Virus record (IMG/VR): IMGVR_UViG_3300002461_000190
Strand: one strand, 5' to 3'
DNA length: 41,775 nt
DNA from: a virus
The position numbers were made by a program, and so were the translations under genes. Below the pieces are notes generated by a model. It was not told the origin of the DNA. It ran no database searches and was given only the letters and a program-made list of their open reading frames with translations. Positions 3,150 to 20,032 of this stretch are shown here, piece after piece; position 1 is the first letter of the stretch, and every line of letters starts with the position of its first letter.

Positions 3150-3779
3150 ATGACCTACACCGTCCGCGATCAACAGGCCCGTTGCGCCGCCCTGGGCTTC
3201 TGGCCCGGCCCTATCGACGGGAAGCTGGGCAAGCGGACCAGCGCCGCGATTGAGGCGGCGACCGAGTTCCAGCGCGAACGCGGCAAGCCCCTGTTTCATC
3301 CGTCCGGCCTTCACCGCGTCCACTGGCACTGGACTGTCGGTTGGCACAAGCCGAACCCGGCGGACCGGAAGCACTATCACGCCATTTTCACGGGCGCGGG
3401 CGAAGAAGTCCTTCTTCACGATTGGGACAAGCTTCTGGCCCATACGCTGAAGGCGAATACCGGCGCGATCGGGCTTTCGCTTTGCGGCATGGTCGGGGCC
3501 AATGAACGGCCCTTCGACCATGGCCCGGAACCGATCACCGAAGCCGCGCTGGCGGCGCTGGCGGTCCGGACGGCGAAGCTTTGCGTCCAGTTCGATATCC
3601 CGGTTTCGCGCTGGTCGACCCTGAGTCATTCGGAAATTCAGCCGTCGCTTGCGATCCCGCAGCGCCAGAAGTGGGATATCAACTGGTTCCCCGGCCTGGA
3701 CAAGCCGACGGACCCGATCACCGCCGGGGACCATATCCGCGCCATGGTTCGCAAGGAACTGGTTCGGTTGGCACAATGA
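3150..3779 (+). CDS. Endolysin: peptidoglycan-binding domain plus N-acetylmuramoyl-L-alanine amidase (PGRP/Amidase_2-like)
   Basis: The N-terminal LGFWPGPIDGKLGKRTSAAIEAATEFQRERG fits the PG_binding_1 pattern. The rest (HRVHWHWTVG..HYHAIF..AHTLKANTGAIGLSLCG..LSHSEI) is amidase-like. Confidence 0.7.
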   Translation: MTYTVRDQQARCAALGFWPGPIDGKLGKRTSAAIEAATEFQRERGKPLFHPSGLHRVHWHWTVGWHKPNPADRKHYHAIFTGAGEEVLLHDWDKLLAHTLKANTGAIGLSLCGMVGANERPFDHGPEPITEAALAALAVRTAKLCVQFDIPVSRWSTLSHSEIQPSLAIPQRQKWDINWFPGLDKPTDPITAGDHIRAMVRKELVRLAQ

Positions 3780-4245: not shown

Positions 4246-4502
4246 ACGGCTGGCCCGTTTACGCCCTGGTTTTCCTGACCATCGCCGCGCTTGTCGTGGC
4301 GCTGGGCAGGGCCAGCCGGGGCAAGGGCGCGGCACAGGCGGAAACCAAGGCCCAGGAGCGCCAGAACGACGCGCTTCGGGCCGATCAGGGGGAAGCGAAT
4401 GAGATTGAGCGCAAAGCCGATCTGGCCCGCCGTGGCGGGGTTTCTGCTATTGACGTCCTGCGAAAAGCCGGTCGCCTTGGAAAGCGCCCCGGCGCGGACT
4501 GA
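4242..4502 (+). CDS. i-spanin candidate (Rz-like)
   Basis: GTG start overlaps the upstream stop (GTGA). It has an N-terminal TM segment WPVYALVFLTIAALVVALG followed by a charged helical region. The o-spanin candidate overlaps its 3' part. Confidence 0.55.
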   Translation: MNGWPVYALVFLTIAALVVALGRASRGKGAAQAETKAQERQNDALRADQGEANEIERKADLARRGGVSAIDVLRKAGRLGKRPGAD

Positions 4503-4653
4503 GTCCTTCAAGACAGGTTGCCGCGAACTGGCCCGCGACTTCCCGGAATGGTATGAAGACGACCCGCCGGAACGCCTGGAACAAGGCGCGCGGTTCGTCC
4601 TGGTCTTCGAAGCGGTCTGTCCTGGATCGCTGGCCCAGAGCGGGCCGCAATAG
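4399..4653 (+). CDS. o-spanin candidate (Rz1-like lipoprotein)
   Basis: MRLSAKPIWPAVAGFLLLTSC has a signal peptide and an L-T-S-C lipobox. SD GGGGGAAG lies upstream. The gene starts inside the i-spanin in another frame. Confidence 0.6.
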   Translation: MRLSAKPIWPAVAGFLLLTSCEKPVALESAPARTESFKTGCRELARDFPEWYEDDPPERLEQGARFVLVFEAVCPGSLAQSGPQ

Positions 4654-4662
4654 ACAGGATCG

Positions 4663-4691
4663 GCCCGGCGCTGGGCAAGCTGGCGCCGGGC
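4663..4691 (+). terminator. Perfect 9-bp stem hairpin after the spanins (GCCCGGCGC..GCGCCGGGC), with no T-tract
   Basis: Read directly from the sequence. The lack of a U-tract makes terminator function uncertain. Confidence 0.3.
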
Positions 4692-4740
4692 ATAACCAAG
4701 CGGCGCCGCTGGCCCGCAACATCAGGAAGGAACGGAACCC

Positions 4741-15251: not shown

Positions 15252-15467
15252 ATGGACGATAAAAAGCTTCTGGACGAAATCGAAACCTATTGCGGGGCTT
15301 CAGGAATGAAGCCTTCGACCCTTGGGCTTAAATCCTTGGGGAATAGTCGTTTCGTCGACCGCCTTCGTCGGCGGATCGTGAAGTCTGAAGAAGACGCGAC
15401 CGCCGTTCGCGCGTTCATGCGGGACAATCCGCCAGCGCCCCGCCCCGCGATTCGTCGCCGGAAGTGA
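15252..15467 (+). CDS. Cro/Ner-like small DNA-binding protein candidate
   Basis: MDDKKLLDEIETYCGASGMKPSTLGLKSLGNSRFVDRLRRR.. It is the first rightward gene, has an HTH-like segment, and has leaderless geometry. Confidence 0.5.
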   Translation: MDDKKLLDEIETYCGASGMKPSTLGLKSLGNSRFVDRLRRRIVKSEEDATAVRAFMRDNPPAPRPAIRRRK

Positions 15468-15522: not shown

Positions 15523-15720
15523 TTGGAACATATCGTCCAGTTTTTCGCGTTCGCGCACCTTCCCCCACACCTTCAGGCGATCAGCAAGCCGTTCGCGGAC
15601 CTTGCCGATCAGATCGTCGCCACGCTTCCGAAGAACCCGGAACGGACGGTCGCCCTTCGCAAGCTTCTGGAATCGAAAGACGCGGCAGTTCGCGCGGCAA
15701 TCGCCAATCCGACCGAATAG
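15523..15720 (+). CDS. Small helical protein (predicted two helices) with a ..ALRKLLESKDAAVRA motif
   Basis: TTG start with SD AAGGG 7 nt upstream. The sequence is FAFAHLPPHLQ..LPKNPERTVALRKLLESKDAAVRAAI. Confidence 0.45.
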   Translation: MEHIVQFFAFAHLPPHLQAISKPFADLADQIVATLPKNPERTVALRKLLESKDAAVRAAIANPTE

Positions 15721-15729
15721 GTCGTCGCC

Positions 15730-17049
15730 ATGACCAAAGAAGCCGAAGACGACGATCTTTTCGTCGAAGCTTGCGCCATTGCCCGACGTGACGGGCGGGC
15801 GTCCAATACGTTCCTTCAATCCGCCTTGGGGATCGGGACCGGGCGCGCCCGAAAGCTTCTGGCGCGCATGGAAGCCGCCGGGGTCATATCCCCCGCCGAC
15901 GCCTTGGGCGCGCGGACGGTCTATTCGACCGCCAGCGCCCCGCCAGCGCCGACAAGCGATCCGGACGACCAAACCCCCGGCGAAGCGCCAGCGCCCGCCA
16001 GCGCCCCGCCTATCGACGCGGGCGACCAATACGCGGAAGCCGTCCGCTTGGTCCGGGCGAACCCGCATTCCTTCGGGACGTCGTTCCTTCAGCGCCGAAT
16101 GGGGATCGGATACAATGCCGCCGCCCGGCTGGTCGAACGCATGGAAGACGAAGGCGTCGTTTCACGGGCGAACGCGGTCGGGAAGCGGTCGGTTCTTCCG
16201 CTGATCGAAGCCGCATTTCGGGAAGCGGCAAAAGACCCGCGTCACGCCGAAACATTGGAAGCCGCAAGGGAATTGCGCGACCGCAATCTGAAGCAACCCA
16301 AGAAAGGGGAAATGAGAATGGACGACGTAACGGAAGACGGCGACGACGAAGATCGGTTCGGCAATGGCAAGCCGAAGAACGTCCAAGCGCCGGGAAGCAA
16401 TCTGGTTTCGGGCGAAGAACTTCGGACGATCTTCGAACGGATCGAAAAGGTCCGTCACGACAAGGCGAAGCTTGGCGACGTCGAAAAGGAAATCTTCGCG
16501 GAACTGAAGTCGCGGGGATACGACGCCGCCGTCGTTCGTCATATCCTGAAGCGTCGGACCCTGAAGCCCGATCAAGTCGCCGAATTCGAGTCGATCACCG
16601 AACTTTATATGGCGGCGGTCGGGATGCTTAACGAACCCCCGCTTTTCCGTCACTTGTCGGGCTTCGGCGTCGATCCGGCGGTCAAGGAGTCGGTTGTGGC
16701 GGCGCTGAAGATGATTGCCCCAATGGACGGCGATATCACGATCAAGGCCGGGCCGGGGCCGCGCTTGCGGATCACCCGGACGAAGGAAGGCGTTCACGTC
16801 GAAGAAGTATCGGACGCCCCTTGGGCGACCGTTCCCGGCGCTGGCGGCGACGTTCCCGGAAAGACGCCCCCGGCGGCGGTTCCCGACGTGAACGACGACG
16901 GCGCGTTCTTGCTTGGGAAGGAAGCCCGGAAGGAAGACGTCCCGGTCGTCCAGAACCCCTTCCCGTTCGGCGATCAGCGTCGCCGCCATTGGGACGAAGG
17001 TTGGCGCGAACAAGACGGCGGGGACGGGTTCGGGGGCGGCGCGTCGTGA
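15730..17049 (+). CDS. Multidomain DNA-binding fusion: 2x FtsK-gamma-like winged helix, a GapR/DUF2312-like domain, and a C-terminal Rmf-like motif
   Basis: FLQRRMGIGYNAAARLVERMEDEGVVSRANAVGKRSVL (FtsK-gamma pattern), plus a more divergent first copy. ELRTIFERIEKVRHDKAKLGDVEKEIFAELKSRGYDAAVVRHILKRRTLKPDQVAEFESITELYMAAVGM (DUF2312 pattern). NPFPFGDQRRRHWDEGWRE (Rmf-like). Confidence 0.7.
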   Translation: MTKEAEDDDLFVEACAIARRDGRASNTFLQSALGIGTGRARKLLARMEAAGVISPADALGARTVYSTASAPPAPTSDPDDQTPGEAPAPASAPPIDAGDQYAEAVRLVRANPHSFGTSFLQRRMGIGYNAAARLVERMEDEGVVSRANAVGKRSVLPLIEAAFREAAKDPRHAETLEAARELRDRNLKQPKKGEMRMDDVTEDGDDEDRFGNGKPKNVQAPGSNLVSGEELRTIFERIEKVRHDKAKLGDVEKEIFAELKSRGYDAAVVRHILKRRTLKPDQVAEFESITELYMAAVGMLNEPPLFRHLSGFGVDPAVKESVVAALKMIAPMDGDITIKAGPGPRLRITRTKEGVHVEEVSDAPWATVPGAGGDVPGKTPPAAVPDVNDDGAFLLGKEARKEDVPVVQNPFPFGDQRRRHWDEGWREQDGGDGFGGGAS

Positions 17050-18068
17050 CGGCGCGCCCCTTCGCCCGCCTTTCCCAATTCGGCGAAGTCCTGAAGGGGG
17101 AAGAAGCGGAAGAACCGATCTTGGCGAAGGGCGTCGCGTCGTCCCTTCTGGAATGGCTGACCGAAATTTGGGAAGCCGAAGCCCTGAAGGCCGTCGGTCT
17201 TTCGCCCCGTTCCCGCGCGATCTTTCACGGTCCGCCGGGGACGGGCAAAACGACGCTGGCGCACCACTTGGCCGGGCGGCTTGGGCTTCCAATCGTCTTG
17301 ATCCGCCCGGACCGGATCGTCGATTGCTTCGTCGGGTCCAGTGAACGAAATATCGGCGGACTTTTTGACGCCGCCCGCGACAAGAAAGACGGCGGCGAAG
17401 GTCCGGTCCTGTTGTTCTTCGACGAATTCGAAGCTTTGGCGAAGAAGCGCAATGTCGGCGGATCGGACGGCGGCGGCGCGGTCGCGGCGGGGAACCGCCT
17501 TGTCGACGTCCTTCTTCAGCGGTTCGATTCCCATTCCGGCTTCGTCATTGCGGCGACGAATCACGGGGATCATTTGGACCCGGCGATCTGGCGGCGGTTC
17601 GATCTTCAAATCCGGATCGACGCCCCCGGTCAGTCCGAACGGGAACGCATTCTGGCGCGCTATCTTGCCCCATACGGGCTTCCGGGGGATCGCCTGAAGG
17701 AACTTGCCTTCGCCTGTGAGACGGCGACCCCGGCGCTTCTTCGCCAGCTTTGCGAAGGGCTGAAGCGAAACCTTGTGATCGGCGCGAAGCTTAAATGGGA
17801 TATGACCCGCGAAGCGACCTTCGACCGCGTGATCGCCGCGATTGAACCCCACGCCGACGCCGGGAAGCCGCGCCTTTGGGCGCTTGGTTCTGGCGACGCG
17901 GCGGTCCGTCAAATGCCTTGGCCGTTGCCCCTTGCGGCGGATATCCCCGCCAGCCCGCCAGAAGCGCCGCCCAGCGCCGAAGGGCCAAAGGTCGTCACCT
18001 TGCACCCGGCAACCGGGAAGGGCCGTTCTGGGGCCGCTGGCGAAGCCGGGAAGGGGGGTTCGAAATGA
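17046..18068 (+). CDS. AAA+ ATPase (classic AAA family)
   Basis: Walker A GPPGTGKT, Walker B LLFFDEFE, and ..VIAATNHGDHLDPAIWRRFD.. GTGA overlap with the upstream gene. Confidence 0.8.
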   Translation: MTARPFARLSQFGEVLKGEEAEEPILAKGVASSLLEWLTEIWEAEALKAVGLSPRSRAIFHGPPGTGKTTLAHHLAGRLGLPIVLIRPDRIVDCFVGSSERNIGGLFDAARDKKDGGEGPVLLFFDEFEALAKKRNVGGSDGGGAVAAGNRLVDVLLQRFDSHSGFVIAATNHGDHLDPAIWRRFDLQIRIDAPGQSERERILARYLAPYGLPGDRLKELAFACETATPALLRQLCEGLKRNLVIGAKLKWDMTREATFDRVIAAIEPHADAGKPRLWALGSGDAAVRQMPWPLPLAADIPASPPEAPPSAEGPKVVTLHPATGKGRSGAAGEAGKGGSK

Positions 18069-18406
18069 CCCGAACCCGCCTTCCTGATCGCCGCCCGTCG
18101 GTTTGGTTTTCGACCGATTGGCAAGGGCATGAATTCGCCGTGACGGTCGGTCTTGATCCGGACACGGGCGCGCCCTTGGAAGTCTTCGCCAATGCCAAGC
18201 GCGGGGCGATGCACTCCACCATTGCGGACGCGGCGGTCTTGATTTCGCTGGCGCTTCAGCGCGGGGCGACGATCCCCGATCTTCGGCGTTCGCTTCTTCT
18301 GGAAATGACCTTCGACGGGTCCGAAGTCCCGGCAAGCCCAATCGGCGCGATCCTTGAAGCGGTCGAAGTCGGGCTGGCCAAATTGCAAGCGGGGGAAGAC
18401 GCATGA
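18065..18406 (+). CDS. TSCPD-like domain protein (resembles the stand-alone C-terminal domain of class II RNR)
   Basis: RLPDRRPS..FAVTVGLDPDTGAPLEVFANAKRG..AAVLISLALQRGATIPDL. ATGA overlap. Confidence 0.55.
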   Translation: MTRTRLPDRRPSVWFSTDWQGHEFAVTVGLDPDTGAPLEVFANAKRGAMHSTIADAAVLISLALQRGATIPDLRRSLLLEMTFDGSEVPASPIGAILEAVEVGLAKLQAGEDA

Positions 18407-18828
18407 AGCCGCCAGTTCCCCCGCCGGGCCTGAAGACCTTCCCCGCCCCGAAGAAGCGCCGGGGGACGCCCGAAGCGGACTTTCAAAGGGCGCTGGTCCG
18501 CGATCTTCGGGCGATCCTTCTTCCGCCGTTCGTCCTTCACCATTCCGCGAACGAAGTCCGTCGCGGCGGGCGTGAAGGCCGGATCGCGCAAGGGATCGCC
18601 GAAGGAATGGGGGTTCACCCCGGCTTTGCCGATCTGGTTCTTCTGTCGGCGAAGCAATGCGTCTTCTTCGAACTGAAGTCGAAGACCGGGACGCTTTCCG
18701 AAGATCAGATCGACTTCCGGGATTTCGTCCGGGGGCAAGGTCACGGTTGGGCGCTGATCCGGACGCTAGACGAAGCCTTGGCGGCGCTGAAGGCGTTCGG
18801 CATTCCGACAAGGATCAGGCGGACATGA
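18403..18828 (+). CDS. VRR-NUC domain nuclease
   Basis: EADFQRALVRDL..HSANE..GMGVHPGFADLVLL..FFELKSKTGTLSEDQIDF..GHGWALIRTLDEA. Confidence 0.7.
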   Translation: MKPPVPPPGLKTFPAPKKRRGTPEADFQRALVRDLRAILLPPFVLHHSANEVRRGGREGRIAQGIAEGMGVHPGFADLVLLSAKQCVFFELKSKTGTLSEDQIDFRDFVRGQGHGWALIRTLDEALAALKAFGIPTRIRRT

Positions 18829-19106
18829 CAATTCAGGAAAACGACTTCTTTCCCGATCTGGACGTCGCCGCCGCCTATCGCGCCCAGCGCGGCGCGACGG
18901 ACGATCAGCGCCGCATTCTGGCGCTTGAACGGCGGGTCCGGGAACTTGAACTGGCACGATTGAACGACGGGCGCTTGGCGGGCCTAGAAGCCGCCGCCCA
19001 GCGCCGGGAACTGGCGGCGCAAGGGGACGCGATCCTTTCCCTTTGCGACCGTCTGGACGCATTGCAAGCCCGCCTAGACGGGCGCGACGGAAAGGCGACG
19101 ACATGA
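18825..19106 (+). CDS. Hypothetical coiled-coil protein
   Basis: ATGA overlaps at both ends. Confidence 0.5.
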   Translation: MTIQENDFFPDLDVAAAYRAQRGATDDQRRILALERRVRELELARLNDGRLAGLEAAAQRRELAAQGDAILSLCDRLDALQARLDGRDGKATT

Positions 19107-20032
19107 GTCACGAAGGAACGAATTGGGCAATCCGCCAGAAGGGTTTGAAGCCCGCGACGAAGCTTGTCCTTTGGTATCTATGCGACCGACACAACCCGGA
19201 CTTTGGTTGCTTCCCGCGTCAAGATCGGCTGGCGGCTGAAGCCGAAATGTCGGTTTCGTCCTTGAACGATCACCTTCGCATTCTTGAAGAACGCGGGCTG
19301 ATCCGCCGGATCAAGCGTTCGGACCCGAAGACGAAGCAACAGCTTTCGACCCTCTATATCTTGGGGTTTGAAGATCGGTTCACACTAAACCCGGTTCCGA
19401 ATTCCGGAACCGGGCCTGAAGGCGACGATTTGCCCGGTTCTGTGGATAACTACGGGGAAAACGGGGGGTCCGGCTCCGAAAAGCCGACTCCGGAAACGGA
19501 CCAAAAGCCGACTCCGAAATCCGGAACCTATAGTAAGACTGTAAGAGAAAGAACCAGTAAAGAAGAAGACGCGGGCGCAAGCGCAAGCGCGAACCCCCAA
19601 CCGTTCGCCATGACCGAAGCGGGGATGGACGAACTTCTTCGGATTGCTGGTCACGATCCCGACGGCGAACTTCCGTCGTGGTGGCAAGGGCAGATTGCCG
19701 CCGATCACGTCGCCAGATGGAACCGCGATCACGGGTTCACCGAAGCCCGAATTCTGTCGGTCGCGCGGGAAGCCCGGAAGGGTCACGTCCAAGCCTTGCA
19801 AGGTCCGAAGGGGTTCGATGCGGCAATGAAGAAAGCCGCGAAGACGGCGGCGCAACCCGTCACGGCAAAGCCCGGAACCCCCGAAAGCATGGATCAGCTT
19901 TGCGCGTTCTATGCCGAAAAGATCAACGGGCCGGGCTGGTTCCCGACGTCGCTTCGGTCGGACATTCGGGCGGAACTGATCGGGCGGAAGATGGTCACGC
20001 CGGAACGTATGCGGGAAAGGGGTTTGCAATGA
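19103..20032 (+). CDS. Replication initiator candidate (N-terminal winged-helix/HTH, lambda O-like role)
   Basis: NWAIRQKGLKPATKLVLWYLCDRHNPDFGCFPRQDRLAAEAEMSVSSLNDHLRILEERGLIRR, followed by a low-complexity, lower-GC linker that contains DNA repeats. Confidence 0.6.
   Translation: MSHEGTNWAIRQKGLKPATKLVLWYLCDRHNPDFGCFPRQDRLAAEAEMSVSSLNDHLRILEERGLIRRIKRSDPKTKQQLSTLYILGFEDRFTLNPVPNSGTGPEGDDLPGSVDNYGENGGSGSEKPTPETDQKPTPKSGTYSKTVRERTSKEEDAGASASANPQPFAMTEAGMDELLRIAGHDPDGELPSWWQGQIAADHVARWNRDHGFTEARILSVAREARKGHVQALQGPKGFDAAMKKAAKTAAQPVTAKPGTPESMDQLCAFYAEKINGPGWFPTSLRSDIRAELIGRKMVTPERMRERGLQ
19390..19560. other. Candidate replication origin embedded in the initiator gene
   Basis: 10-bp perfect inverted repeat CCCGGTTCCG-aattc-CGGAACCGGG (19390-19414). 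TCCGGAA occurs three times. A 14-bp direct repeat AAAAGCCGACTCCG is at 19479 and 19503. An A/T-rich stretch lies at about 19525-19568. Confidence 0.4.

Follow-up and report, generated by a model that had tools for sequence, protein, structure and literature searches.

A GapR-type phage protein with FtsK-gamma winged helices and an Rmf/CrpP-like tail, and the AAA ATPase encoded directly downstream of it

What might a phage do with a protein in which two winged helices of the FtsK-gamma type precede a GapR domain? The question is raised by the IMG/VR virus record IMGVR_UViG_3300002461_000190, a stretch of 41,775 nucleotides (nt) that was analysed as a whole and is called the window here. Positions 15730-17049 of its + strand form one unbroken open reading frame (ORF) of 439 amino acids (aa). 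The orthologue of this ORF is gp60 of the Rhodobacter capsulatus phage RcKemmy (MW677517.1, RcC cluster), where it is annotated as "hypothetical protein". The window is 94% identical to RcKemmy in nucleotides over part of its length and is also close kin to the other RcC-cluster siphoviruses. Phages of this cluster have cos ends and form turbid plaques, and the gp60-type gene has been given no function in them (PMC8601537). Collinear homologues (407-494 aa, or shorter forms with one gamma domain) exist in 11 cultured Rhodobacter phages and in 42 database clusters; because they are so many, no frameshift has been missed in the 439-aa ORF, and the possibility that it is split, which an earlier sequence-only reading of the locus had raised, is excluded. 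The gene, its domains and its partner gene are as follows.

15730-17049, + strand: the whole gene, encoding the 439-aa protein with the order gamma, gamma, GapR, middle domain (M), tail (T), from domain searches, alignments and the RcKemmy gp60 orthologue
15742-15930, + strand: FtsK_gamma-type winged helix 1 (aa 5-67), recognition helix IGTGRARKLLARME, E 4e-8 to structure 2J5O, predicted local distance difference test score (pLDDT) about 87
16024-16197, + strand: FtsK_gamma-type winged helix 2 (aa 99-156), recognition helix IGYNAAARLVERME, E 2e-8
16411-16623, + strand: GapR (DUF2312/UPF0335) DNA-binding domain (aa 228-298), complete fold, PF10073
16627-16815, + strand: middle domain M (aa 300-362), modelled by AlphaFold2 (AF2) as an EPPLFR linker, two helices and a three-stranded sheet
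16885-17019, + strand: tail T (aa 386-430), a predicted helix-loop-helix of the Rmf/CrpP fold with the motif NPFPFGDxRRRxWDEGWR, followed by a Gly-rich C-terminal end
17046-18068, + strand: AAA ATPase partner gene, p97/Cdc48 D2-like and IetA-like, with a GTG start that overlaps the stop of the preceding gene (GTGA)

The unit that is conserved in phages of alphaproteobacteria consists of the GapR-M-T core and of an AAA ATPase encoded directly downstream. The sequence-only reading had placed its emphasis on the joining of gamma and GapR, and had overlooked both this core and its translationally coupled neighbour. The GTG start of the AAA gene at 17046 overlaps the TGA stop at 17047-17049, and RcKemmy and a relative of 44% identity share this arrangement of the two genes. 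Further loci were located through the tail motifs, in 27 viral contigs and at 6 positions in alphaproteobacterial genomes (Devosia, Rhodobacter, Pseudogemmobacter, Sulfitobacter and others). Each of them has an orthologue of the window AAA immediately 3' and in the same orientation (phmmer E 1e-90 to 1e-132), with genes that usually abut or overlap and gaps of 260 and 850 nt in two loci. Overall, 38 of 38 tail-bearing loci have an AAA orthologue immediately downstream (E 1e-51 to 1e-132). When the domains are classified by individual hidden Markov models and written as G for gamma, R for GapR, M for the middle domain and T for the tail, the pairing holds for every tail-bearing order, namely R-M-T, G-R-M-T, R-T-G, R-G-T and R-T. 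By comparison, none of the seven tail-less GapR loci (L002, L003, L039, L044, L046, L048 and L049; types G-R, R-G and R-M) has an AAA orthologue downstream. A simple Fisher test of 38/38 against 0/7 gives about 2e-8, a value to be read with the phylogenetic non-independence of the loci, most of which were picked via the tail. One candidate exception, an R-M protein accompanied by the AAA gene (L050), was rejected, as the tail is present there in another frame and the gene is a frameshifted R-M-T.

The association was also followed from the side of the ATPase. In 50,697 phage records, AAA orthologues (86-90% identity) were confined to the 11 RcC phages with the tail-bearing gene, and all other matches were generic AAA cores of at most 38% identity. 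Within the RcC phages, the AAA protein is more conserved than its GapR-bearing partner (86-90% against 65-72%). In a few loci, the tail is carried by the ATPase itself or by a gene of its own.

L016, 4663-5754: AAA orthologue with its own complete C-terminal tail (Rmf/CrpP-like)
L017, 4684-5766: AAA orthologue with its own complete C-terminal tail (Rmf/CrpP-like)
L025, 4648-6774: AAA orthologue with its own complete C-terminal tail (Rmf/CrpP-like)
L030, 4040-4692: tail encoded by an ORF of its own (4462-4692), which lies between the R-M and AAA genes

The orthologue of L025 (IMGVR_UViG_3300036851_000172) is 708 aa long and carries an insert of about 350 aa inside Walker A (GPPGVGK / ... VVTHN / TTLGHHLA). 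The insert includes a LAGLIDADG-like segment (LGLMLGDGSF), which suggests an intein within the P-loop.

The best PDB matches of the AAA partner are p97/Cdc48 D2 domains (1e-41), and it also matches the PADLOC models of IetA (4e-53). It belongs to PF00004 and not to the FtsK/HerA group. Walker A, Walker B, sensor-1, the WRRF arginine pair and the [F/Y]VG pore loop are conserved in 35 orthologues, and because these catalytic and pore-loop motifs are retained, the partner is probably an active polypeptide-threading enzyme. With IetA of the IetAS system it shares the make-up of a single-ring classical AAA protein with intact pore loops. The difference lies in the protease, since no gene for an IetS-like, subtilisin-type protease was found beside the AAA gene, either among its neighbours in the window or in L004, L040, L042 and L050. 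The genes that accompany it are TSCPD-like, VRR-NUC and initiator genes, and the pair is thus not an IetAS system in spite of the IetA match. No PADLOC match was obtained for the 439-aa protein.

The tail is the domain on which the pairing turns, and its likeness to Rmf/CrpP, proposed in the sequence-only reading, was recovered at the level of profiles and structure, with sequence scores below the curated cut-offs. Pfam RMF (PF04957) gives the tail 14-20 bits against a cut-off of 27.9 (whole-protein match at aa 405-427; E 1e-3 to 6e-3 in tail-only queries), NF041887 ("Rmf/CrpP fold protein") 15-19 bits against 40, and NF041886 16.5 bits against 28. When 35 diverse tails were compared with the same models, 28 matched NF041887 and 25 matched NF041886 (best E 7e-6). 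An earlier profile that covered the close family alone retrieved no Rmf from the PDB, and a diverse one was needed. Searched against the whole PDB at E<=10, the diverse profile retrieved three sequences only, all of them Rmf (6H4N, 4V8G and 2JRM, E 0.08-0.4), in alignments that span the whole domain and keep the P-x10-W-x3-GW spacing. For the C-terminal half, an AF2 model from 36 sequences reached a mean pLDDT of 83, with values of 94-98 in the tail and about 90 in M. In a Foldseek search of viral models (BFVD), the modelled tail superposes on dozens of stand-alone phage proteins of 44-70 aa (probability 1.00, root-mean-square deviation 0.4-1.5 A), two of which are annotated as ribosome modulation factor.

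Profiles and models taken together, the Rmf/CrpP assignment can be accepted for the tail as a predicted fold, and not as membership of the family. The tail resembles the small proteins of this fold (PF04957, NF041886, NF041887; 6H4N, 2JRM) in its helix-loop-helix and in the spacing of its conserved residues. It differs from them in its sub-cut-off scores, in its C-terminal position on a DNA-binding protein and in its genomic tie to an AAA ATPase. A search of a 5.8-billion-protein database with the tail profile returned three matches only and is uninformative on other tail fusions. For domain M, no Pfam match was obtained, and the R-M-T model found nothing significant in the PDB by Foldseek (best E 0.26).

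The GapR domain of the sequence-only reading was confirmed by Pfam, as was FtsK-gamma, both well above their cut-offs. PF10073 scores 69 bits against 22.6 and covers model positions 2-72 of 72, and 73 residues align without gaps to crystallised GapR (6CFY, 6CFX, 6CG8); the family profile retrieves 6OZX and 6JYK in addition to these three. At 9 of the 15 basic positions of Caulobacter GapR the basic residue is retained, and the total basic count is similar. The fold of Caulobacter GapR is a tetrameric clamp around DNA, and the protein is essential in that organism. To our knowledge, it is the sole known marker protein of positively supercoiled DNA, and we know of no partners that load or remove the closed clamp. 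Its binding as a clamp on overtwisted DNA and its aid to topoisomerases (Guo 2018, Tarry 2019) are summarised in passages of PMC12185513 and PMC7824862. The Caulobacter protein (CCNA_03428; PF10073/UPF0335; 6CG8, 6OZX, 6JYK) stands alone with about 89 aa, whereas here the same full fold, shared by alphaproteobacteria and their phages, is one domain within 439 aa and is accompanied by M, T and the AAA partner, none of which chromosomal GapR is known to have. Stand-alone GapR-type binders have also been described in phages, where they presumably help in DNA transactions. ORF28 of Erythrobacter phage R34L1 was reported as an "auxiliary" gene (PMC12185513), and T4 DsbA was proposed as a (remote) GapR homologue and as a candidate activator of late transcription (PMC7824862). 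Unlike the protein of the window, these are single-domain proteins, for which no AAA partner, gamma or tail has been reported.

The two gamma domains are genuine. The Pfam score for PF09397, spread over two stretches, is 108 bits (cut-off 30.6), NCBIfam agrees, and each winged helix queried singly finds the Pseudomonas aeruginosa FtsK-gamma structures 2J5O and 2VE8 at the E-values listed above. The family profile retrieves the FtsK-gamma structures 2J5P, 2VE8, 2J5O and 5DCF, and AF2 models both domains as winged helices (pLDDT 80-88). Less can be said for the emphasis on two readers of the FtsK orienting polar sequences (KOPS). The residues of Escherichia coli FtsK that contact KOPS are said to have been placed at N1296, R1300 and E1303 by Sivanathan in 2006. 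Gamma-2, whose identity to genuine FtsK gamma domains reaches 66%, retains N, R and E at all three positions of its recognition helix, whereas the helix of gamma-1 has G, K and A there. The KOPS sequence GGGNAGGG occurs at 14 sites in the phage genome against 10.5 expected, seven on each strand, so that neither enrichment nor strand polarity of KOPS is present in this genome. The reading of chromosome polarity is therefore unsupported for the phage genome. No FtsK alpha/beta motor (PF01580) was detected in the 439-aa protein or in its family, and no dif-like XerCD site was found in the window with up to 3 mismatches allowed.

Relative to gamma of FtsK/SpoIIIE (PF09397; 2J5O, 2VE8, 2VE9, 5DCF), the likeness thus consists of two homologous winged helices, one of them with N, R and E, and the differences are the missing motor, the lost contacts of gamma-1 and an accessory gamma complement that varies in number. 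Other phages carry stand-alone FtsK_gamma genes, "role still unknown", and a TerS-FtsK_gamma fusion was found in the Bacillus phages Sam46 and Sam112 (PMC8190038). These cases fit the view that gamma, a winged helix derived from the host, is reused in phages as a portable DNA-recognition module. In Sam46 and Sam112 it is joined to the small terminase; here it is joined to a GapR clamp in an early/replication operon. One family member, P0032 (494 aa), has a Cys/His-rich insert of about 50 residues (…CTAWEDCGHDGICHDPAFCG…) between gamma-1 and gamma-2, which is not present in other members and may be metal-binding.

How common such proteins are was seen in a profile search of 1.84 billion cluster representatives, which gave 99 proteins at E<=1e-30. 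Architectures were read from the best 150 cluster representatives at 50% identity. R-M-T was the most frequent (43), followed by R-M (31, some of them frameshifted R-M-T), G-R (30), R-G (21) and G-R-M-T (7), with few of each of R-T-G, R-G-T and R-M-G. FtsK_gamma and GapR are joined, in one order or the other, in at least 60 of these 150. The fusion that had been called unusual is frequent and has arisen in both orders, and FtsK-gamma is a freely shuffled, optional DNA-recognition module in phage proteins. The companion statement, that no described protein combines the two, agrees with the literature, since neither a gamma-GapR fusion nor a GapR-AAA pair turned up in full-text searches; in the databases, however, the fusion itself is common.

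The full order G-G-R-M-T is restricted to the RcC-like lineage (two 50% clusters). Among 16 aligned relatives, most have two gamma domains and several have one, with the first or the second missing, and the invariant columns concentrate in GapR, in M (about 300-362, from EPPLFR) and in T. The ancestral unit, of wide distribution, is a GapR-M-T protein of about 220 aa, to which two gamma modules have been added in the 439-aa protein. The R-M class deserves some caution in the databases. The gene of L050 (3001-3655; GCA_031291645.1 JARLIQ010000129.1), called as a 216-aa R-M protein, has an out-of-frame C-terminus with the tail in the other frame (3392-3655), and several R-M proteins of about 210-230 aa (P0106, P0120) resemble frameshifted R-M-T genes. 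The frameshift of the L050 type at the M-T linker may be an assembly error or a recurrent frameshift.

The position of the gene as third in the early operon, stated in the sequence-only reading, was borne out; the operon runs rightward. From 15730 through 20466, each gene junction has a 4-nt overlap of start and stop. The other genes of this region are listed here.

15252-15467, + strand: operon gene 1, a small protein homologous to RcKemmy gp58, which is annotated as a helix-turn-helix (HTH) protein
15523-15720, + strand: operon gene 2, phrog_1761 protein, function not assigned
18065-20032, + strand: remainder of the chain of 4-nt overlaps, with a TSCPD-like protein, a VRR-NUC nuclease, an unassigned small protein of 93 aa and an HTH_36 O-like replication initiator

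The order 3' of the gene is therefore AAA (PF00004), TSCPD-like, VRR-NUC, the 93-aa protein, the HTH_36/O-like initiator, a function-unassigned protein and a methylase. In ten diverse loci, three MT-A70 methylases, a C5 methylase, a D12 methylase and an HTH_36 initiator were found 3' of the gene pair, together with a Prim-Pol primase, a GcrA homologue, an integrase and a DUF4055 protein. As methylases, initiators, a primase and a nuclease adjoin it, the cassette is placed in the early DNA-replication/modification region of temperate phages. Phages with the cassette (L008, 5998-6966; L004, L009, L023, L026) often encode further homologues of alphaproteobacterial cell-cycle or chromosome proteins nearby, such as a GcrA homologue and MT-A70 (CcrM-type) methylases, beside GapR and FtsK-gamma.

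Some observations were made on other parts of the window. The RcKemmy orthologue of the gene at 18065-18406 is labelled "ribonucleotide reductase"; the 113-aa protein has only a weak TSCPD match (E 8e-4, under the cut-off), and the label is probably an over-annotation. A gene with a ParB-like nuclease domain lies at the left end in RcKemmy and the window. The annotation of RcKemmy includes no integrase, despite the turbid plaques of RcC phages, and a Pfam search for an integrase in ten leftward or large ORFs of the window gave no matches, several of these ORFs being probably spurious. The motif GATCACC occurs 29 times on the + strand of the window and not once on the - strand, where 5.9 +/- 2.2 sites would be expected on both strands together. 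The 29 sites extend from 3533 to 41101 and fall in the three reading frames 9/9/11. The polarity is equally absolute in RcKemmy, with 6:0 and 13:0 in two overlapping loci (L001, L047), and no such polarity was seen in more distant phage contigs. GATCACC could be a Chi-like protective motif oriented to cos, or could reflect evasion of Type III restriction through a single orientation. It was rejected as a target of the gamma domains, as nothing links the motif to them.

What, then, would the gene pair do? The reading preferred here is that the 439-aa protein is the DNA-binding subunit of a two-gene phage module, in which a GapR clamp and an AAA unfoldase are coupled by the tail. It is held tentatively, with a probability of about 0.45. 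By analogy with chromosomal GapR, the GapR part would encircle phage DNA, preferably where it is overtwisted, ahead of replication or transcription, and may help host topoisomerases to act on such DNA. The gamma winged helices would raise or direct the affinity for DNA, and the tail would couple the clamp to the AAA hexamer. The hexamer could then act on the clamp, topologically trapped as it is, or on proteins bound nearby, remodelling or stripping them, and removal of the clamp would keep the phage genome replicable and packageable. Cdc48/p97 extracts DNA-encircling ring proteins, and the stripping of a GapR clamp would resemble that activity. A wider version is rather doubtful. It holds that alphaproteobacterial phages encode a hitherto unrecognised ATP-driven clamp machine, in which a Cdc48-like unfoldase loads or recycles a GapR ring, sometimes steered by gamma, or uses it as an adaptor on the DNA, with the Rmf/CrpP fold as the coupler of clamp and AAA.

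Several points weigh against the coupling of clamp and unfoldase. The interaction of the two proteins, their oligomeric state and their DNA binding are all putative. The co-occurrence counts carry no phylogenetic correction, and the tail motif itself served to find most of the loci. Fusions of AAA and tail are explained equally well by a tail that binds the AAA protein and by two proteins that reach a common third target through their tails. Stand-alone Rmf-like tail proteins exist in phages, e.g., the small tectivirus GC1. The AAA partner is homologous to the defence ATPase IetA. A preference of the GapR part for overtwisted DNA is an assumption, because the domain scores 48.9 bits with the chromosomal GapR equivalog NF052541, far under its cut-off of 140.

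The protein could act on the host chromosome instead. Its gamma domains would read host KOPS or bind XerD, the GapR part would bind or poison the nucleoid or host GapR, and the AAA protein would extract host proteins, arresting segregation or replication. The KOPS contacts kept by gamma-2 and its close identity to genuine FtsK gamma point in this direction, and the unremarkable KOPS content of the phage genome makes host DNA the more plausible target of a KOPS-reading domain. Mixed oligomers with host GapR are conceivable. Gamma is nevertheless dispensable, being absent in most cassette phages and single in close relatives, and gamma-1 is without the contact residues. Turbid plaques (PMC8601537) and prophage relatives fit poorly with destruction of the nucleoid, and the gene is translationally chained to replication genes. 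The sequence-only reading had offered manipulation of the host nucleoid and organisation of phage replication side by side; the second, in replication or topology, fits the neighbourhood better, and the first, for which no specific support was obtained, is unlikely.

A role in conflict is also to be considered, be it prophage defence, superinfection exclusion or anti-defence, with the IetA-like AAA protein as effector or sensor and the GapR-M-T protein as its DNA-sensing partner. This would account for the IetA match, for the wide distribution of the cassette among prophage-like loci and for a shuffling of domains that is unusually free, as is typical of conflict systems. We regard it as decidedly unlikely, given the lack of an IetS-type protease nearby and of a PADLOC match for the 439-aa protein. 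The pair moreover lies inside an early lytic operon, coupled to nuclease and initiator genes and not moron-like, and the high conservation of the AAA protein across RcC phages is unlike that of fast-evolving conflict genes.

If T4 DsbA is taken as the model, the GapR-homologous ring could be a transcription factor that directs host RNA polymerase to middle or late promoters, with specificity given by the winged helices. DsbA is a reported GapR homologue and a candidate activator of late transcription (PMC7824862), and three DNA-binding domains and early expression agree with such a role. It is very unlikely all the same, as it leaves the AAA partner and the Rmf-like tail unexplained, the gamma domains that should give specificity are missing in most family members, and no recurring operator-like motif could be tied to the protein.

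The tail could also be directed to the ribosome, binding the 30S subunit or RNA in the manner of Rmf and tethering translation or hibernating ribosomes to phage DNA, where the AAA protein would remodel them. Alignment across the whole Rmf domain, the shared fold and the existence of stand-alone Rmf-like phage proteins can be cited for this. The similarity to true Rmf is, however, marginal and under all curated cut-offs, the tail is mixed acidic and basic (WDEGWRE) and not strongly basic, and the AAA ATPase is its sole consistent genomic partner. A ribosomal role of the tail is unlikely, and the scheme as a whole is highly improbable. Activation of XerD, which would allow lysogeny without an integrase at a dif-like site in the manner of IMEX elements, is barely credible: FtsK-gamma activates XerD in bacteria (PMC3130261) and RcKemmy lacks an annotated integrase despite its turbid plaques (PMC8601537), but no dif-like site was found in the window even at 3 mismatches, relatives with the same or other gamma-containing architectures carry tyrosine integrases, and most cassette-bearing phages are without gamma.

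The GapR/AAA two-gene module is apparently undescribed. The gene pair offers a concrete, testable handle on how GapR clamps are loaded or removed, in a phage (RcKemmy) and a host (R. capsulatus YW1) that are both in culture and amenable to experiment. For the widespread Rmf/CrpP-fold proteins of phages and integrative elements, the pair suggests coupling to an AAA ATPase as a first functional context. If the wider version, an ATP-driven clamp machine, is true, the module would be a bacterial-virus counterpart of ring extraction by p97, and it would provide a function for the CrpP/Rmf-like proteins of mobile elements.

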